Shown: positions 15,128-58,729 of the stretch, in pieces | How the letters are laid out: each line of letters starts with the position of its first letter | Position numbering within the stretch: the first letter of the stretch is position 1 | IMG/VR virus record: IMGVR_UViG_3300023082_000008 | Coordinates: 1-64,000 of that record | DNA from: a virus | Lineage: Duplodnaviria > Heunggongvirae > Uroviricota > Caudoviricetes | DNA length: 64,000 nt | Direction: 5' to 3' (one strand) | Position numbers and translations under genes: made by a program | Notes under the pieces: model-generated | Databases searched by the model: none | Told to the model about the DNA's origin: nothing | The model's input: the letters and a program-made list of their open reading frames with translations, nothing else

Positions 15128-15512
15128 AGAACTTGTACCGCGCAGACCCTGACGATATGAGTCGATCACGGAAGCGCAAGCAATGTAGGCGCGGTACAAC
15201 CACGGGGATGATTTGGTATTCGACTCCGTCAATTAAATATAGATACGCAGCCAGTGTTACGGCGTTTACCAGACACTTAAAAGAGGTACGCCAAAAAATA
15301 AATGACGACTATGATGTTGTCGCAGGGGCAGAGGCTATCCTAGCCAACGCTTCGCTCGTTACAGTTTGATCCTTAGGGATTAAAGGCGGTAACGATAAGG
15401 TGGCTACCACCTTACTAACCAAAACGTAGCACCAACAGTTTATCCGTATCTGCTAAACGGATTGGTGGAATCGTTGACCGGCTTAAGCAACCGTTCAGCC
15501 CCAGTAATACCG

Positions 15513-15588
15513 GGAGCGGTACTCAATGGCTGTAATTCGTACTACAGGAAAATGACGGAACACCGGGGTTCGACTCCCCGCATCTCCA
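15513..15588 (+). pseudogene. tRNA-like element with canonical T arm but no foldable anticodon arm (probable pseudo-tRNA)
   Basis: CGGGG-TTCGACT-CCCCG then CATCTCC-A. The best 5' partner, GGAGCGG, has two mismatches. No X5-L7-X5' anticodon arm was found. Confidence 0.35.
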
Positions 15589-15605
15589 CAACAGACAGGA
15601 AACTC

Positions 15606-15920: not shown

Positions 15921-16462
15921 ATGCGCTAAATGAAGCAGCACGTGGTGTTAATAATGCATGGTGTAAGGGAGACCTCCGTAAAGAGGCAGAGTCGAAGGAT
16001 TCCGGCGATCAGTACTGTTCTGTGAGTCATCTAGCCCTTTCTTTGGCCAAGGCTCAGGGTCTAGAACTTTCCATTGATGGAGAGCATGTCGGTTTTTCTG
16101 AAATGATTGATAAGTATAATAAATGGTTCCTCGATGATTTCGACGGTAATGCTCCAGAAGGACTTGATGATGATACACTTGAGGGTTCTTATACTTTCAT
16201 CGACAACACTACTGAGGGCAAGTTGCTGGCCGATACCATCAAGGCAAATTTTTCCGACCGCCTTAAGGATATTCACGTAGACAATGTTTCGGATTCTTAT
16301 ATCATCTGGAATTTCAACGATCACGGCGATACTACTCGCGAAGAGGTTATTTCTATGATGGAAAAGGCAGCGGCATCCGTTGATGAACAGAGTGCATTTG
16401 AGGAAAAGACTTCTGATGACCTTGTTGCAGAGATGGATGAACTTCTCAATGAGAAGGTTTGA
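15917..16462 (+). CDS. acidic hypothetical protein
   Basis: 181-aa ORF with ATGA overlap to the upstream gene. A terminator hairpin follows. Confidence 0.6.
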   Translation: MNALNEAARGVNNAWCKGDLRKEAESKDSGDQYCSVSHLALSLAKAQGLELSIDGEHVGFSEMIDKYNKWFLDDFDGNAPEGLDDDTLEGSYTFIDNTTEGKLLADTIKANFSDRLKDIHVDNVSDSYIIWNFNDHGDTTREEVISMMEKAAASVDEQSAFEEKTSDDLVAEMDELLNEKV

Positions 16463-16488
16463 CAGTCACAGCAAGACTATGCTAGACT
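16459..16488 (+). promoter_or_regulatory. promoter TTGACA-18-TAGACT
   Basis: TTGACA 16459-16464, TAGACT 16483-16488. A GC-rich hairpin at 16499-16528 lies between the promoter and tRNA-Asn. Confidence 0.55.
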
Positions 16489-16533
16489 AGTAACACAAGC
16501 GGGGCCGGTACGAAAGTACCGTCCCCGCACCAT

Positions 16534-16605
16534 TGCTCAGTAACTCAGCGGCAGAGTAGGGTGCTGTTAACACCAAAGTCGTAGGTTCGATCCCTACCTG
16601 AGCAG
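16534..16605 (+). tRNA. tRNA-Asn (anticodon GTT); CCA encoded at 16606-16608
   Basis: Acceptor TGCTCAG pairs with CTGAGCA. Anticodon loop CTGTTAA. T arm GTAGG-TTCGATC-CCTAC. Discriminator G then CCA. Confidence 0.75.
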
Positions 16606-16651
16606 CCATTCGGGCGCGAATCTAAACACGTAAAACATTAAAGGGGTTAAA

Positions 16652-16966
16652 ATGGTAGACGAATTAATCGGTACTCGCAAGGGTACAATCAAGGTAACAC
16701 AGGTTGCTTGCATTGAAGTGGACCTTGATAAAACCATTTCAAACGTTTTCCCTTTGGCAGGAATTAACGAGCCTGTGTCATCTCTGGAAGACTTGCTGGT
16801 TATTTTTAAAAAGAATGCCCAAGCGGCAATTGATTGGAATCCAGGATCAAAGTTTGAAACTGTTGATGTAACTATTCTTGCACCAGAAGTGCAAGAGCAA
16901 GTAGATTTGCTTCGCAAAAAAGCACAAGATGCCCTAGACGAAGCAAACCAACTTATCAAAGGCTAA
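16652..16966 (+). CDS. hypothetical protein
   Basis: 104-aa ORF. Confidence 0.55.
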   Translation: MVDELIGTRKGTIKVTQVACIEVDLDKTISNVFPLAGINEPVSSLEDLLVIFKKNAQAAIDWNPGSKFETVDVTILAPEVQEQVDLLRKKAQDALDEANQLIKG

Positions 16967-16972
16967 ATTCAT

Positions 16973-17057
16973 TGAGGTATAGACCGTAATTGGCAGCGGG
17001 CTCCCCTGTTAAGGGAGTGTTTAACAGACCTTGTAGGTTCGAGTCCTACTTCCTCAG
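16973..17057 (+). tRNA. tRNA-like, GTT anticodon loop, 85 nt with an unpaired 15-nt variable region (atypical)
   Basis: Acceptor TGAGGTA pairs with TTCCTCA at 6 of 7 positions. Anticodon arm CTCCC-CTGTTAA-GGGAG. T arm GTAGG-TTCGAGT-CCTAC. Confidence 0.4.
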
Positions 17058-17082
17058 CGCAAAAGAAAGTCAAGAGAAAGAC

Positions 17083-17111
17083 TTGACACCCACTGGTCAG
17101 TAAGATAGACT
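17083..17111 (+). promoter_or_regulatory. promoter TTGACA-17-TAGACT driving an ~850-nt non-coding transcript and tRNA-Lys
   Basis: TTGACA 17083-17088, TAGACT 17106-17111. Confidence 0.6.
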
Positions 17112-17950
17112 GGTGGAACACCAAGCGGGCCGAATGTTGGCCGATACCATAGGATTCGTCCTCGGAGTCGTAGCACCGGCGCTTGGTTCATAATTTAAAA
17201 CAGGCATGGCTGATAAGTGCGGGTGACCGTACAGAAAGGCTAGATGACTTCTAGTCGCCAGTGACGCAAGTCGCGGGTAAACCATGCAATCTGCAACTAC
17301 CAAGAGTCTTGAAAGAGGTTCTAACCCGGTGAGCAGGGAACGGCCAGCGCCTAGCGGTGAGGTCAACGGTGTACCCAAGCCAAGGTTTCCATACGCAAAT
17401 CGGCAAAGTAGGACAGAAGGATATGCTAGTCCAAGGCTGCAACCGAGGGCGGTATCCATGTTCAGGAGAAAGTGGACTGCGGAGTTCATGAGTACTCGTT
17501 ACGATTGTCAGTAGCCGCAAGCGAACGCATATTGATGGTGTGAGACATTCTTTAGCCCAAAAGGCTACGGACTCTCAGGGAAACCACATCGTCTGTCGGA
17601 ACCCTTTGGGGCCGGGCTAGCGCCCCATCCAACCATTTGAAGGTTATCAAATATAAAAGCAAAAGTGTTTCCCCGCTGTAAGCGTAAGTGTCCAAATGCT
17701 AGACCGCAAGGAATCTAGCCTGTACCGCGCCGCAAGCAACGTACAGTCTGTATGAAAGTAGTTCAACCTAGAGGCTTGCTACCTTTGGGCCAAACCAAAT
17801 CAGCAGAGTAGGTTACAGCGTAAAAGAATGGTAGACTCAAACTACCGGGCATGGTAACTAGTGCGGGAACGTACTGGAAAAGTTGGGAAACAATAATCCA
17901 ACGAAAGGTTACCAGCCGGGGAGAGTATTCTCATCTCCCCGGTACAACAT
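17112..17950 (+). ncRNA. candidate large structured non-coding RNA (no convincing ORF)
   Basis: No ORF has a ribosome-binding site or is operon-consistent. Many hairpins, e.g. CCGGGGAGAGTATTCTCATCTCCCCGG, GGGGCCGGGCTAGCGCCCC and CCAAGCG...CGCTTGG. It is promoter-driven and ends at tRNA-Lys. Confidence 0.4.
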
Positions 17951-18022
17951 GGCTCTCAGACCATCCGGTTTGGTACCTCGCTCTTAACGAGAATGTATAG
18001 GGTTCGATTCCCTAGGGAGCCA
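17951..18022 (+). tRNA. tRNA-Lys (anticodon CTT)
   Basis: Acceptor GGCTCTC pairs with GGGAGCC. D stem ACCA/TGGT. Anticodon loop CTCTTAA. T arm TAGGG-TTCGATT-CCCTA. Confidence 0.75.
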
Positions 18023-18157
18023 CCGAGCAAGTCTTTACGACTATAAGCCTCAGGTGACGTGTGATAAGTGATCATAAGCGCACGGTGTACTAAGGTGAAT
18101 CATCCCAGTGATGCGAACTGCTCGACCAACTTGAACCGTCAACAGTTAGGTACACAC

Positions 18158-18484
18158 ATGAGTTACATGAGAAATGCAACCAATGACAATGTGTACCGGG
18201 CCACTATTGTGGTTGAGCAGAGGCTCCTGAAAGACGACAGCGTTGTCCAGACATGGACCGCACACTCCCGCGCATACAACACCACGTCTGCTGGTGCTAC
18301 CATGTGGCTCAACGAGCAGGTACGGGATCTTGGAGACGTTGAGAAAAGAGTCCGGGACGAATACCGCACCGACATTTATCGGACCGGTAAATCGAAGCAC
18401 AAGACGTATGAGACGCTGGTAGAAGGTACCGGAGTATTTGTCGCTACCGGTTGGACTCCCAAGCCAAAGAAAGGTAGAAAGTAA
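18158..18484 (+). CDS. hypothetical protein
   Basis: ORF from the ATG at 18158. Confidence 0.5.
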   Translation: MSYMRNATNDNVYRATIVVEQRLLKDDSVVQTWTAHSRAYNTTSAGATMWLNEQVRDLGDVEKRVRDEYRTDIYRTGKSKHKTYETLVEGTGVFVATGWTPKPKKGRK

Positions 18485-18687
18485 TGTACGCATTCACACC
18501 TAATCAGTTGCGAGCACTGGCAGATTCTATCGAGGCTCTGAATGACGGTCTTGTGGGAGATTCTTTGACAGAACTGGCCTATGACGATGTTCCAATTACC
18601 AACATGAACAACGATCTAATTGGTAAGATCAGTTACGATGAAAACGGAGCCTATGGCTTCATGGTCAAAAAGAAGTGGGGATACTAA
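18484..18687 (+). CDS. hypothetical protein
   Basis: 67-aa ORF with overlapping stop-start. Confidence 0.5.
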   Translation: MYAFTPNQLRALADSIEALNDGLVGDSLTELAYDDVPITNMNNDLIGKISYDENGAYGFMVKKKWGY

Positions 18688-19049
18688 TGGCTCGAACATT
18701 TGCTGACGATGAGGTTATCTACCGGGCGGTAGTCAAGACCGAATACCGTCACCTACAGAGCAACAAGCCTTTCATCCTTAATGAGGGAACTGAGCATGCC
18801 ACTACCGGCTATTACCGAATTAACGGGCCTTACAGTAGTACGGCAGCAGCCAAGCGTCAGTTGAAAAGCCTCTTACGCGATCCTCATAGCAAAGAAGACG
18901 TTGAGGCACAGAACAAAAGACGCGTTGAGCAGAATGCCCGCCTCGCGCAAATGGGACGCAACCCGTATCCAATGCGCGAGTATTATGAGATAGTAACTGA
19001 CTTTGGTATTGACAAAGTTGAACCATCAGACTGGAGGAGGGTTGTATGA
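18675..19049 (+). CDS. hypothetical protein
   Basis: 124-aa ORF. Confidence 0.55.
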   Translation: MGILMARTFADDEVIYRAVVKTEYRHLQSNKPFILNEGTEHATTGYYRINGPYSSTAAAKRQLKSLLRDPHSKEDVEAQNKRRVEQNARLAQMGRNPYPMREYYEIVTDFGIDKVEPSDWRRVV

Positions 19050-19369
19050 GCGTTCAAAAATTTGATTGGGGCGACAAATACTATACAGCAGCCTTCAAAT
19101 TCGTTCATACTACCGACCCTACAGTTTCTTTTATTAGATACTATGGTGTCTGGAAGACTACAAGAAATCCTAATCAGTATATCAAAACAACACTTAACTG
19201 GCAGCATAGATTTCAAAAGGCTCGTGCCGAGGGTGTGACTAAGTACATTCGATCGCCCAACGATGCGTGCTATCCTGTTCAGCACGCATCCTACAAAATT
19301 ACACATGCATGGATTTCTGTCATCGACGCCGGTACGGAAACAGTTGACAACTCCATGATCACAGTGTAG
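19046..19369 (+). CDS. hypothetical protein
   Basis: 107-aa ORF with ATGA overlap. Confidence 0.55.
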   Translation: MSVQKFDWGDKYYTAAFKFVHTTDPTVSFIRYYGVWKTTRNPNQYIKTTLNWQHRFQKARAEGVTKYIRSPNDACYPVQHASYKITHAWISVIDAGTETVDNSMITV

Positions 19370-19372
19370 ACT
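19344..19372 (+). promoter_or_regulatory. promoter TTGACA-17-TAGACT
   Basis: TTGACA 19344-19349, TAGACT 19367-19372. The -10 overlaps the stop codon of the upstream gene. Drives two tRNAs. Confidence 0.55.
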
Positions 19373-19424
19373 AGAAGTATCACGACTGGTAGTCGTTCTG
19401 TGCAGGAAGGCTACCAGTTCTCAT

Positions 19425-19497
19425 GTACACGTATTCCAATGGTAGAGAAACATCGTTGAGGACGATGCCAGTGAGGGTTCGATTCCCTTCGTGTGCA
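19425..19497 (+). tRNA. tRNA with anticodon GAG (Leu-type) but class I length; CCA encoded at 19498-19500
   Basis: Acceptor GTACACG pairs with CGTGTGC. Anticodon arm CATCG-TTGAGGA-CGATG. T arm GAGGG-TTCGATT-CCCTT. Discriminator A then CCA. No long variable arm. Confidence 0.6.
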
Positions 19498-19501
19498 CCA
19501 T

Positions 19502-19575
19502 GGCGCTCAGGTTATACGGCATTTAACATCTGACTTTTAATCAGAGGGCAGTGGGTTCGATTCCCACGGGCGCCA
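19502..19575 (+). tRNA. tRNA-Lys (anticodon TTT); CCA encoded at 19576-19578
   Basis: Acceptor GGCGCTC pairs with GGGCGCC. Anticodon arm TCTGA-CTTTTAA-TCAGA. T arm GTGGG-TTCGATT-CCCAC. Then A and CCA. Confidence 0.85.
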
Positions 19576-19653
19576 CCAAAATTTTCATGTTGACCAGTCG
19601 GTCCACATGTGCTATGCTTCTAGCACATTCCCACCAAGGAAAGGCAATCATTT

Positions 19654-21558
19654 ATGATTCCACAGAAGACCAATGCCACTGTCGAGGGTTCGCTCGGGGG
19701 TCGAACCGCTGCTGCTACTGTCCGTCCTGAGGACATGGCACATATCATGCAGGTTCTTACTGACTTGTATTCAGACAATGCTCTGGCCGTACTTAGAGAG
19801 TACAGCACCAACGCTCGCGACGTGCACATCAAGTACAAGATTGCACGTCCTATTGAGGTCACGCTACCTTCGCGCCTATCCAACACCCTGACGATCAAGG
19901 ATTTTGGTCCCGGCATGGACGGTGATGACATGGAAATCACTTATACCCATTACGGACGCTCCAACAAGCGTGAGTCTGCCGATGAAAATGGCTTTTTGGG
20001 TCTGGGCTCCAAGTCGGCCCTGACTTATACAACCACTTTCACGGTTGTTTCCGTCAAGGATGGAATTAAGACTCAGGCTGTCGTCTTTCGCGATGAGGAG
20101 GGACTGCTCCACATTAACATTGTGGCAGAATCTCCCACGACCGATCTTTCAGGAACGATTGTCACCATTCCAACAAAGTTGGGTGACAACTTTACCGATA
20201 AGGCCAGAGAGTTTTACAAGGTTTGGGACAAGGGCACGGTTCTGGTCAACGGCGAGCAGCCAAAGCACATCAGTGAAGAGGATGGTTGGACTGTCCTCGG
20301 TGATCACTACATTCGTATAAACCAGAATGGCTACCGCTCCGAGTCTCGCATGAACGTTGTCATGGGCAACGTCACCTACAAGGTTGAAATGCCGACTCCA
20401 TCATCGTTCCGTGTTGGAATTGAGACATTTACTTTCGTTCCCAACGGCTCGGTGAAGTTCGTTCCCTCTCGTGAGGCTCTGGACCTCAAGCCGTCCACAA
20501 AGGCTGTTGTAGACAATGCGTGGGATGACATGGCTACTCGCTACCTCGCTTATTTCAAGGACGGTCTGGCCAAGGCTCAGACGATTGAGGATGCCGTCAA
20601 GGTCTTCCTTCCTATGATGAGCGTGCTCGGTCACCAGCAGGGACTTGAGTGGCGCGGTATCAAGTTGCAGGAAACGAATCGCTACAATGGACGAGAGTGG
20701 TCCAAGGGCTGGCAGAACAACGGTATTGGTGCAACTCAGATGCGTGACAATGTATCTTTGTCTACCGCATATGCCAGCGACACGGCATTTATCACCAACC
20801 GTACCTCCAAGTCTTCGCTGAGTTCTGGTGAAAAGGCACGTTTGGCTCAATACTTGACCGCAAATGGCGGCGGTATTACGCGGGTTTACTTCAATGGAGA
20901 TGAACTCGATGTATTCAAGGGTGCGAAGAAGATTGATTGGCAGGTCGTTCTGACCTCGACTCAGTCTCCGACCACTCCCAAGACCACGCGTCCCAAGGAT
21001 CAATGGGAGTATTACACGACGGACGGTACCTCTCGTACCCGTCAGTTCGGCTCGGTACCGGCAGGCAAGACAGTCCTGTACGGCTCCAACACCGAACTCC
21101 GTCTAGATACTTGGAATCCCATTGACCTTGATTTTCTTAATCACATGGGTCCGCAGTACGTTTGGTTCAATGTGGCGCTGAATCGTCAGGAGAAGTTCAA
21201 GCGGGACAATCCCGGAGCGGAGCATTTCCGTACGCATCTTGACAAGTTTGTCGAGAAGGTCCGACACAGTCTGACAGAGGAAGAGAAGTTGGCTTACAAG
21301 GCTTACGATCTAGGGGATTCTCTTCTCTATGACAGTCTTCTCGGCAAGACTGATGACCCGCTTATTGACCTGATTCATGGTACAATGGGAGTAGCAAAGG
21401 TAAAGGGAGAGAAGGTAAATCGCATCCTGCGACTGGTTCGCAAGGGTTCGTTCTCAGTGCCCGGTGAAGATTACATTGCAGAGAATTACCCTCTTGCAAC
21501 ACGTGATCATATCGACCACAGCATTCTCTACATCAACTACATCAAGAATGGAAAGTGA
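19654..21558 (+). CDS. rIIA: rIIA-like protein with N-terminal GHKL (histidine-kinase-like) ATPase fold
   Basis: Bergerat-fold motifs EYSTNARD (N box), DFGPGM (G1) and GFLGLGSKS (G2). The 634-aa size and the rIIB-like gene directly downstream fit the T4 rIIA/rIIB arrangement. Confidence 0.55.
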   Translation: MIPQKTNATVEGSLGGRTAAATVRPEDMAHIMQVLTDLYSDNALAVLREYSTNARDVHIKYKIARPIEVTLPSRLSNTLTIKDFGPGMDGDDMEITYTHYGRSNKRESADENGFLGLGSKSALTYTTTFTVVSVKDGIKTQAVVFRDEEGLLHINIVAESPTTDLSGTIVTIPTKLGDNFTDKAREFYKVWDKGTVLVNGEQPKHISEEDGWTVLGDHYIRINQNGYRSESRMNVVMGNVTYKVEMPTPSSFRVGIETFTFVPNGSVKFVPSREALDLKPSTKAVVDNAWDDMATRYLAYFKDGLAKAQTIEDAVKVFLPMMSVLGHQQGLEWRGIKLQETNRYNGREWSKGWQNNGIGATQMRDNVSLSTAYASDTAFITNRTSKSSLSSGEKARLAQYLTANGGGITRVYFNGDELDVFKGAKKIDWQVVLTSTQSPTTPKTTRPKDQWEYYTTDGTSRTRQFGSVPAGKTVLYGSNTELRLDTWNPIDLDFLNHMGPQYVWFNVALNRQEKFKRDNPGAEHFRTHLDKFVEKVRHSLTEEEKLAYKAYDLGDSLLYDSLLGKTDDPLIDLIHGTMGVAKVKGEKVNRILRLVRKGSFSVPGEDYIAENYPLATRDHIDHSILYINYIKNGK

Positions 21559-26428: not shown

Positions 26429-26501
26429 GGGTTATTAGCACAGTGGTTACTGCATTCGGTTCTTACCCGAAGGAACCTCGGTTCGAATCCGAGATAACCC
26501 A
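26429..26501 (+). tRNA. tRNA-Lys (anticodon CTT), second copy
   Basis: Acceptor GGGTTAT pairs with ATAACCC. Anticodon arm TTCGG-TTCTTAC-CCGAA. T arm CTCGG-TTCGAAT-CCGAG. Confidence 0.75.
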
Positions 26502-26623
26502 CAAAGACAGAAGTCGACGTCTGTCTAGTAAGTGGCACGACGGTGCTGGTTCTTCGGAACTATTGAATATGCTGGACAACACATAGAAACCGAGTATTCA
26601 TCCTTACGTGAAAATTGCAGTTT

Positions 26624-57437: not shown

Positions 57438-58085
57438 TTACTTTGTATCGACGCCGCGCATGTCAACGCCATTTCTTAACTTGCTGACAATGACTTTTGA
57501 GACTCCGTACTTTTCTGCCATAGACTTTCCAGAACCACGACTGTATGGTTTTGTGAGGATATCTGCTACAGCCTCAGGAGAGAGTTTGCTACGATACTGT
57601 TGGCGAGGTATGTTTCGATTCTCTCCACCGGTATAGAATTCAAAAGACCGACCGGTAAGGATTCTTCTAACCAGTTCTTCTGAGACATTGTACTGCTGTG
57701 CCAAGTCAACGACCATTGTCTTAGTAATGGGAGAATTGTAAATGTTCTTCACGTCTTTGATCGGAAGAAGATTGTGTCCTCTTTCCTTTGACAATTTATC
57801 GTCACTGTTGACCTTGGCTGTGCCTAGAAAAAGATGTTCGGGACGAACACATTTTCGATTGTCACACTTGTGGCACACCTGAAATCCTGTAGGATCACCA
57901 TTGAAAACCTCGTATGTTATCCTGTGAGCGCCAATGGTTTTTTGTCTACCCGTGAAGTCGCGCAGATTTCCGTATCCCGTGCGAGTGTTCTTGGTCCACT
58001 CCCAGCAGTGCCCCAGTTCCGGTCGCACGATGGTACCAGTTTTGTCAACGTTATCCCAGAACCAGTCTGGTATTAAAATAGTCAT
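57438..58085 (-). CDS. HNH homing endonuclease (HNH_3 type)
   Basis: [15 protein letters not shown]...[11 protein letters not shown]...[18 protein letters not shown] core with a C-terminal DNA-binding region. Confidence 0.7.
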
Positions 58086-58112
58086 GGTCTAATGATACCA
58101 CACAAAAGTTAA

Positions 58113-58337
58113 CTATAGTCGCAATCTGTAAAACCATTTTACATGCTGCGTGGTTTGAGGCTCCCATCCAAGAGTGGCAAGTGCCGCGCCAAAAGCAGTT
58201 CTTCGAACAGGAAGCCATTCTCCAGTCTTGAACATGATATGTTTGGGTTCTTTCCAAAATTTGATGAATCGCCCTACGACCAAAATGATACTGAGAGTTG
58301 TTAGACCCCAGACACCAAATTGTAAGAAAAGAATCAT
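58113..58337 (-). CDS. small membrane protein
   Basis: 74-aa ORF with two hydrophobic helices. Confidence 0.45.
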   Translation of the reverse strand: MILFLQFGVWGLTTLSIILVVGRFIKFWKEPKHIMFKTGEWLPVRRTAFGAALATLGWEPQTTQHVKWFYRLRL

Positions 58338-58504
58338 CCCATAAAATTTCTGAACTTGTAAATGAAGTACGCCAGCGAGCCCAGCACGCCAACAACCACA
58401 CCGGCGATGGTGCTCAAAATTACTGCGATCATATGTCCTCTTTCATGCAGGGAATTTACTAGGGTTTCTAAGAGAGTTAAAAATGAGGGAATCTATGAGG
58501 GTTA

Positions 58505-58729
58505 CTACAACCGACCAATAAGTAGACCTTCGGCCACTTCCCAATTCAGTTCACCCTTGTCGAGAGCGACAGAGTAGGCACATTTCCGAAGGTCGATGCC
58601 CGTGTTGACGCATTCGTGCGAGTGCATGATATAAATAGTACCAGCCTTGAATAACAGAAGATGATAGTCTTCATGGCGTGGTACGCCGAAAATCTTTTCA
58701 ATCTTCTTTGGGTCCACGAGTTCAGTCAT
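58505..58729 (-). CDS. hypothetical protein
   Basis: 74-aa ORF. Confidence 0.45.
   Translation of the reverse strand: MTELVDPKKIEKIFGVPRHEDYHLLLFKAGTIYIMHSHECVNTGIDLRKCAYSVALDKGELNWEVAEGLLIGRL

Follow-up and report, generated by a model that had tools for sequence, protein, structure and literature searches.

Results

Organization of the locus

The window (the whole 64-kb stretch of phage DNA that was analyzed) contains 37 tRNA genes, comprising 36 predicted by ARAGORN and a further one at 17951-18022, plus one tmRNA gene. Within this island, a predicted promoter is followed on the + strand by a leader, a two-domain RNA and, after a short spacer, a tRNA-Lys(CUU) (Table 1). Judged from its sequence, the stretch from 17203 to 17942 (+) is a GOLLD RNA gene, a divergent new member of a known family. 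The conserved RNA is about 740 nt long and is divided into a 5' domain of 330 nt and a 3' domain of 410 nt. The presence of a second structured domain on the 5' side brings the element into the size range of GOLLD RNAs (about 700-850 nt), and its position within the tRNA island of a phage agrees with the location of the family in or beside phage and prophage tRNA islands. The preliminary description of this DNA had regarded the whole of about 0.85 kb as a single element; this holds for 17203-17942, which is conserved, but not for 17112-17202, which is an unconserved leader.

Table 1. Features of the GOLLD locus and its upstream tmRNA, in window coordinates
Feature	Position	Strand	Remarks
Phage-encoded tmRNA	15204-15591	+	RF00023, 66.2 bits (gathering score 47)
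Putative SigA/sigma-70-type promoter, TTGACA-17-TAGACT	17083-17111	+	10/12 consensus positions; activity predicted
5' leader outside conserved GOLLD	17112-17202	+	91 nt, unconserved
GOLLD 5' domain, actinophage/mycobacterial type	17203-17532	+	330 nt; HMM and covariation
P1	17204-17209 with 17282-17287	+	GCAUGG with CCAUGC
P2	17217-17232	+	GUGA loop
Invariant GAAAGG	17234-17239	+
P3	17239-17255	+
P4	17257-17278	+	Window copy extended by an inner GCAA hairpin
Middle subdomain	17290-17417	+	Closed by UCUG/CAGA and CUAC/GUAG; single-sequence MFE fold
Conserved block AGUCC..GGCGGnnnCCAUG	about 17428-17460	+
3' hairpins of the 5' domain	17473-17489, 17505-17530	+
GOLLD 3' domain	17533-17942	+	RF02032 match 17533-17937
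First hairpin	17533-17594	+	A-rich loop CAAAAG at 17558-17563
Variable linker (J13/15)	about 17595-17658	+	Without embedded tRNA
GCAAAAG	17659-17665	+
Long-range helix, CGCUGUAA with UUACAGCG	17674-17681 with 17813-17820	+
Two hairpins with CGCAAG loops	17705-17710, 17731-17736	+
GAGUAG	17806-17811	+
GGGAAACAAUAAUCC	17885-17899	+
Terminal hairpin	17916-17942	+	Conserved loop GUAUUCUCA
8-nt spacer UACAACAU, last GOLLD hairpin to tRNA	17943-17950	+	Presumed tRNA 5' leader
tRNA-Lys(CUU), second diverged copy	17951-18022	+	Rfam tRNA, 39.7 bits (gathering score 29)

Identification of the RNA

For identification of the RNA, positions 16000-19700 were compared with all 4227 Rfam families by cmscan at E<=1. 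GOLLD (RF02032) was the sole strong non-tRNA match in this interval, aligning to 17533-17937 (+) at 187.7 bits (gathering score 150, E 1.7e-52) and spanning model positions 1-416 of 416 above the curated threshold. An identical match was recovered when the whole window was searched at gathering thresholds. RF02032 models the conserved 3' domain only, and the 5' domain of the RNA falls outside the Rfam model. tmRNA, RNase P RNA, group I and group II introns, ROOL, OLE and HEARO gave no match at E<=1 in 16000-19700, nor was ROOL found anywhere in the window at its gathering threshold; tmRNA, RNase P and group I introns had already been set aside in the preliminary description. The same description had proposed a large structured non-coding RNA, to be tested with cmscan against Rfam (GOLLD included) and by covariation with relatives, and the full-length GOLLD match above the gathering score bears the proposal out. 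The novelty that it implied was not supported, as the GOLLD family was first described in 2009 and its structure was solved by cryo-EM in 2025.

All of the 3'-domain signatures of the family could be located by a combination of the cmscan alignment and the sequence, including GAGUAG, GGGAAnnnAUAAUCC and the GUAnUCUCA terminal loop. The long-range helix of this domain encloses the hairpins with CGCAAG loops, as the GOLLD signature requires. Positions of the 3'-domain motifs in Table 1 were read off the sequence. The stretch of 833 nt from 17118 to 17950 has a minimum free energy of -278 kcal/mol (z = -2.6), with none of 20 shuffled sequences as stable. This agrees with the abundance of hairpins noted previously, and the predicted fold energy is by itself weak evidence, the covariation described below being much stronger.

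Relatives of the window GOLLD

A blastn search (word 11) with 16900-18200 against 50,697 phage records returned no matches, because identity to the window is only 47-56%. With the family too divergent for BLAST, relatives were instead gathered by conserved-motif scans of viral and genome collections, followed by nhmmer screening. About half of the matches in genome contigs, and most of those from the first viral scan, were due to chance; the real genomes were only those of Mycobacterium and Mycolicibacterium. A single metagenome scan, employing a pattern specific to the window and its best relative (L121), returned only a chance match in eukaryote-like coding sequence (L193) and no close relative.

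The relatives include the cluster M mycobacteriophages MrMagoo (L060, which is 100% identical to that phage), Aziz (L064), Rey (L123), Reindeer (L125) and Bongo (L129), together with M. abscessus prophages, Mycobacterium and Mycolicibacterium genomes (L142, L149, L164 and L171) and uncultured viral contigs. Best among them was the uncultured viral contig L121, with 56% identity to the window. All 11 loci that were tested exceeded the RF02032 threshold, with scores of 162-306 bits; canonical members scored 273-306 bits and cluster M phages 162-201 bits, which places the window near the low end of the family.

Several observations were made on the relatives themselves. A jumbo viral contig of 345 kb (IMGVR_UViG_3300045988_179014) carries two GOLLD copies with about 54% mutual identity (L074, 10883-11679, and L111, 1501-2368), both above the Rfam threshold. 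In MrMagoo, where the GOLLD region L060 corresponds to 57941-58710 of the phage record, a 35-nt sequence resembling the 5' half of a tRNA (GCTCGCTTAGCTCAGTCGGCAGAGCGCCCGCGTTA, at about 7022-7057 of L060) ends 6 nt before GOLLD; the same is seen in Rey and Reindeer. A sequence resembling it also occurs in Aziz, there within a complete tRNA-Asn farther upstream of GOLLD, whose 3' end contains GGCATGGCG, resembling the GOLLD 5' motif. From these sequences, the tRNA-half fragment in front of the cluster M GOLLD may be a recombination scar.

A conserved 5' domain

The 5' domain was examined with an HMM built from 14 relatives, with the window excluded. A single match was obtained in the 64 kb, at 17202-17516 (E 2.5e-20). 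nhmmer alignments to L121, MrMagoo, Aziz, the viral locus L090 and others begin at about 17197 of the window, and some two dozen loci align across both halves of the RNA, starting at about 17197-17203 with the motif GGCATGGCnnATAAG. Among the family members measured, the length of this domain is 321-349 nt.

An alignment of 15 sequences, the window and 14 relatives, was prepared with MAFFT and analyzed with RNAalifold, which returned 46 consensus pairs, 38 of them with compensatory double changes. Standard pairs occupy 90.5% of the pair cells, compared with 33-43% when the partners were slid by 1-3 columns, and the covariation score is 0.58, whereas sliding gives at most 0.14 and shuffling 0.23 (of 500 shuffles, none reached the observed values). 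These counts are to be read in the light of the consensus structure having come from the same alignment that was scored. In P1, the GCAUGG/CCAUGC of the window is replaced in relatives by GCAUGA/UCAUGC and GCUUGA/UCAAGC, and up to six pair types are found per position of P2. The 5' domain is thus a covariation-supported fold homologous to the 5' domains of GOLLD RNAs in cluster M phages and Mycobacterium tRNA arrays. The region has been kept through compensatory changes, including the half that is absent from Rfam; poor conservation without such changes, the outcome named as refuting in the preliminary description, was not seen.

Some coordinates of this domain were taken from the sequence rather than the alignment. 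The window row of P3 was off by one base, and the long-range helix of the middle subdomain (columns 151-159 with 253-261) was unpaired in the window row. As the middle part (17290-17417) was badly aligned by MAFFT, independent single-sequence folds were relied on instead; in all members, these contain a long-range helix that closes the subdomain and three hairpins, one of 8-11 bp, one in two tiers and one with a UACNCA loop.

Coding potential

Open reading frames within 17097-17950 were found on both strands, encoding 130, 89 and 47 amino acids on the minus strand and 76 and 49 amino acids on the plus strand. None of these gave a Pfam match, and no protein-level conservation of the frames could be detected by tblastn in the homologous regions of relatives. 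The tblastn matches at the locus were stretches of 20-38 amino acids, mostly 20-32, that mirror conserved RNA motifs. The earlier view that these roughly 840 nt hold no credible gene therefore stands.

Predicted promoter and leader

The promoter named in the preliminary description, TTGACA-17-TAGACT, was confirmed by promoter scan at 17083-17111. TTGACA-N16-18-TAGACT occurs in 13 copies in the 64-kb window, all on the + strand (positions 909, 1259, 5201, 6572, 13010, 16459, 17083, 19344, 28438, 33524, 37582, 45487 and 48241), against 0.04 expected from shuffled sequences. The majority of the copies lie 11-60 nt 5' of tRNA genes, and in many TG precedes the -10 hexamer. This excess over expectation, together with the location mostly before tRNA genes, points to a recurrent phage promoter and not to chance, and in its sequence the motif looks like a phage promoter family serving RNA genes and early genes. 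The GOLLD transcript would probably start near 17118. A comparable element, TTGACA-N17-TTAGAGT, is located about 38 nt upstream of GOLLD in one of the relatives (L122).

The leader can fold as a long irregular hairpin with the closing pair CCAAGCG/CGCTTGG, the energy of which is unexceptional (-28.8 kcal/mol, z -1.5). No Rfam match was obtained for the leader at E<=10 and no homologue by nhmmer among the 228 fetched loci; with an ordinary fold as well, its origin as a decayed tRNA or another known RNA was rejected as unsupported. In most relatives, the 3' end of a tRNA lies 5-26 nt upstream of the start of the conserved GOLLD; in L122, the promoter-like element takes its place.

3' end and tRNA-Lys(CUU)

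Directly downstream of GOLLD, the minimum free energy fold of 17951-18022 is a cloverleaf (z -2.3). The tRNA-Lys(CTT) had been called well formed, which is correct for the cloverleaf, the CUU anticodon and the Rfam score, but A8 replaces U8 and the anticodon stem contains a C-A mismatch. The gene was missed by ARAGORN, A8 and a weak D arm being the probable cause, and also by the whole-window Rfam run with default filters. A better copy of tRNA-Lys(CUU) is found at 26429-26502 (64.6 bits, Rfam).

The distance from GOLLD to this tRNA could be compared across loci by means of the GGAAnnnATAATC anchor. Among 34 other GOLLD loci, 17 have an ARAGORN-predicted tRNA that starts 46-56 nt past the anchor, the window value being 53 nt. 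The identity of the downstream tRNA varies across loci and includes Met, Glu, Arg, Ala, Gly and Lys. Based on the general mechanism of RNase P, the 3' end of GOLLD is probably set by cleavage of the tRNA precursor.

tmRNA, tRNA-Asn and phage context

The upstream tmRNA was detected by ARAGORN at a lowered threshold, not at the default; its tag was not identified by this program, and a candidate is DDYDVVAGAEAILANASLVTV*. Between the tmRNA and GOLLD, a second tRNA-Asn(GUU) is found at 16973-17058 (+). At 86 nt it scores 31.3 bits with the Rfam tRNA model and folds no better than shuffled sequences (z -0.4), and it may be an odd or decaying copy with an insertion. The order tmRNA, tRNA-Asn, GOLLD, tRNA is found in the window, MrMagoo, Aziz and L090. 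More broadly, among 54 GOLLD-positive viral loci, 12 had a tmRNA gene in the flanking sequence that was fetched, as against 0 of 108 chance viral loci; the counts are from ARAGORN, which undercounts tmRNA genes, and the comparison is crude, since tRNAs abound at GOLLD loci as well.

Genes for rIIA, rIIB, a phosphoesterase, WhiB and others are collinear with those of Streptomyces phage Coruscant (Stanwilliamsviridae), with 29-55% protein identity; this collinearity makes an actinobacterium the most likely host of the phage. Among cultured phages, Coruscant comes closest in gene order, and it has a large tRNA set. No GOLLD or tmRNA match was found in its record (MT711976.1, 45000-132361; L227 and L228). 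As this phage is rich in tRNAs yet has no GOLLD in that span, the RNA appears to move between actinophage tRNA islands.

Discussion

GOLLD, a rare RNA, is among the largest non-coding RNAs of bacteria and phages, and it assembles into RNA-only cages bigger than a ribosome. To our knowledge, no function has been assigned to it in the 17 years since its discovery. The locus described here is very likely to be a GOLLD gene in the tRNA island of an actinobacteria-infecting phage, expressed and assembled along the lines proposed below.

Host RNA polymerase would start near 17118 from the TTGACA-17-TAGACT promoter and transcribe through the 91-nt leader, GOLLD and then tRNA-Lys(CUU). RNase P would cut between 17950 and 17951, by which the tRNA would be freed and the 3' end of GOLLD set, and the leader might either be trimmed off or be retained as a lineage-specific tail. 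By analogy with the env-38 14-mer and the Streptococcus agalactiae 12-mer, the 5' and 3' domains would fold separately. Kissing loops and A-minor contacts would then link copies of the RNA into a cage, closed and hollow, with the linker pointing inward.

The cryo-EM structure of env-38 GOLLD is a closed D7 14-mer cage, 380 Å across, in which the 5' domains (residues 1-420) form the caps and the 3' domains (residues 421-833) the rings, with a disordered linker inside (PMC12286853). S. agalactiae GOLLD is a 12-mer, and its 3' domain alone is mainly a 10-mer (PMC12286853, PMC12990946); cage stoichiometry varies with the composition of the 5' domain (PMC12990946). Three motifs are conserved both in the window and across its relatives: GAAAG after P2 (17234-38), the CAAAAG loop (17558-63) and the CGCAAG loop (17731-36). 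By position, these correspond to the inter-chain contact residues A34/A35 (contact B1), A447/A448 (contact B6) and the G656:C657 palindrome (contact B8) of env-38 (PMC12286853), respectively. The mapping is only approximate: the copy of the env-38 sequence taken from the supplement of that paper comprises 816 of 833 nt, about 17 nt having been lost, and the 5' domain of env-38 does not align to this family. By comparison with these structures, the window GOLLD would be expected to form a homo-oligomeric cage. The 5' domain of the window cannot be aligned to that of env-38, and the quaternary contacts and stoichiometry of env-38 are consequently not transferable to it.

Previous work places GOLLD RNAs near phage and prophage tRNA islands, as 12- or 14-mer cages of unknown function that increase during lysis (PMC12286853, PMC12990946, PMC6582537). 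Roles proposed for the family are the holding of tRNAs, ribosomes or other cargo and the storage of embedded tRNAs (PMC12286853, PMC12990946). In the present phage, the most likely role, albeit speculative, would be that of a lytic-phase RNA tied to the takeover of translation, with the cage storing, shielding or sequestering tRNAs, ribosomes or other cargo. The notion of a tethered tRNA cargo is inapplicable to the linker here, as it contains no tRNA.

Two alternatives would deny the locus a working RNA. It could encode one or more small proteins, for example from the 130-amino-acid frame at 17097-17489 (-) or the 76-amino-acid frame at 17284-17514 (+); frames of such size do exist at the locus, and cluster M GenBank records show a hypothetical protein over the homologous region. 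Open frames are, however, a property of the GOLLD region in all relatives (the longest being 84-186 amino acids), and no shared protein emerged from tblastn. With DNA conserved where protein is not, no Pfam match, and substitutions that are compensatory for base pairs rather than codon-like, the protein reading has a negligible chance of being right. It could also be the relic of a GOLLD, in decay and non-functional, that persists as a passenger of the tRNA island, for which speak a Rfam score just 38 bits over the threshold and the absence of GOLLD from Coruscant, which suggests a dispensable, horizontally gained element. Against decay, the whole model is matched with few non-canonical pairs, cluster M GOLLDs score similarly (162-201 bits), and the gene has its own copy of the recurrent promoter of the phage. 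The testable helices of the 5' domain are also all intact in the window once alignment shifts are put aside, and a relic is accordingly considered highly improbable.

The remaining readings accept a functional GOLLD and differ on what it does. Its action could be chiefly in cis, as a scaffold on which tRNA-Lys(CUU) is processed or stored. Folding or multimerization of GOLLD would then delay or gate RNase P and thereby time the release of the tRNA, with the free cage secondary. The downstream tRNA is in a fixed register in 17 of 34 loci as well as in the window, relatives carry tRNAs inside the linker, and the storage of embedded tRNAs was proposed in a 2026 review (PMC12990946). The downstream tRNA nonetheless differs in identity from locus to locus (Met, Glu, Arg, Ala, Gly or Lys), at half of the GOLLD loci ARAGORN predicts no tRNA in register, and a better tRNA-Lys(CUU) is encoded elsewhere in the window (64.6 bits). 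A conserved two-domain fold of 740 nt also far exceeds the needs of a processing signal, and a mainly cis role is regarded as unlikely. A further, joint reading, held only as a tentative suggestion of about the same low standing, is that the actinophage-type GOLLD is both a distinct structural subclass and part of a conserved translation module, of which the window holds a minimal copy. Under this joint reading, the 5' domain of about 330 nt could give a cage with stoichiometry or geometry unlike those of env-38, and within the module of tmRNA, tRNA-Asn, GOLLD and tRNA, the functional partner of GOLLD may be either the tRNA that flanks it on the 3' side or the tmRNA pathway; the promoter of its own, the private 91-nt leader and the tRNA-free linker would then mark the window copy as the minimal module. 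A GOLLD gene whose product assembles into a free cage remains the preferred explanation.

GOLLD has already been described, along with its architecture and its setting in phages and near tRNAs, and no new kind of system is revealed by this locus. What it adds is a divergent GOLLD, with no relative found above 56% identity, in a Stanwilliamsviridae-related lineage whose nearest cultured relative is without the RNA, and, through the comparison set, evidence that GOLLDs of the actinobacterial subtype have a conserved 5'-domain fold supported by covariation. The fixed-register tRNA on the 3' side and the frequent tmRNA neighbor sharpen the hypotheses of RNase P processing and of a link to translation. 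Residual interest lies in the function of GOLLD and in the actinophage-specific 5' domain. On a practical note, hypothetical-protein CDSs and tRNAs are annotated across a GOLLD that is itself unannotated in the GenBank entries of cluster M phages (MrMagoo, Aziz, Rey, Estes, Reindeer, Bongo and others).

Comparison with known systems

ROOL RNA (RF03087 class) resembles GOLLD in its occurrence in phage tRNA islands and its assembly into an RNA-only cage (PMC12286853), but its sequence and fold are unrelated to those of the window GOLLD. The GOLLD RNAs of known structure, env-38 from a marine metagenome (PDB 9MEE) and that of S. agalactiae (PDB 9L0R), share the same Rfam 3'-domain model with the window, including CAAAAG, CGCAAG, GAGUAG, GGGAAnnnAUAAUCC and the terminal loop GUAUUCUCA. 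Both env-38 and the window also have GAAAG after the second 5'-domain helix. The hairpin equivalent to L24/L25 differs, with a GGAA tetraloop in the window in place of a CAAAAG-type loop. In length, the primary transcript predicted for the window (about 17118-17950, 833 nt) is close to env-38 (833 nt), whereas the conserved RNA of about 740 nt is nearer to S. agalactiae GOLLD (700 nt). The 5' domains of the window and env-38 are 330 and 420 nt long, respectively, and a sequence HMM aligns only pieces of the 3' domain between the two RNAs.

The closest match in architecture is with the GOLLD RNAs of cluster M phages, M. abscessus prophages and Mycobacterium tRNA arrays. Like the window copy, these have two domains with a 5' domain of 321-349 nt, the 5' start GGCATGRCnnATAAG, P1-P4, GAAAGG, GCGGnnnCCATG and the same 3' core, and the gene order of tmRNA, tRNA-Asn, GOLLD and tRNA is also as in the window. 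They are nevertheless just 47-50% identical to it. The window linker contains no tRNA, whereas those of L121 and the cluster M phages do, and the window GOLLD is further set apart by an extended P4, its own promoter and the 91-nt leader; in most relatives, a tRNA immediately precedes GOLLD instead.
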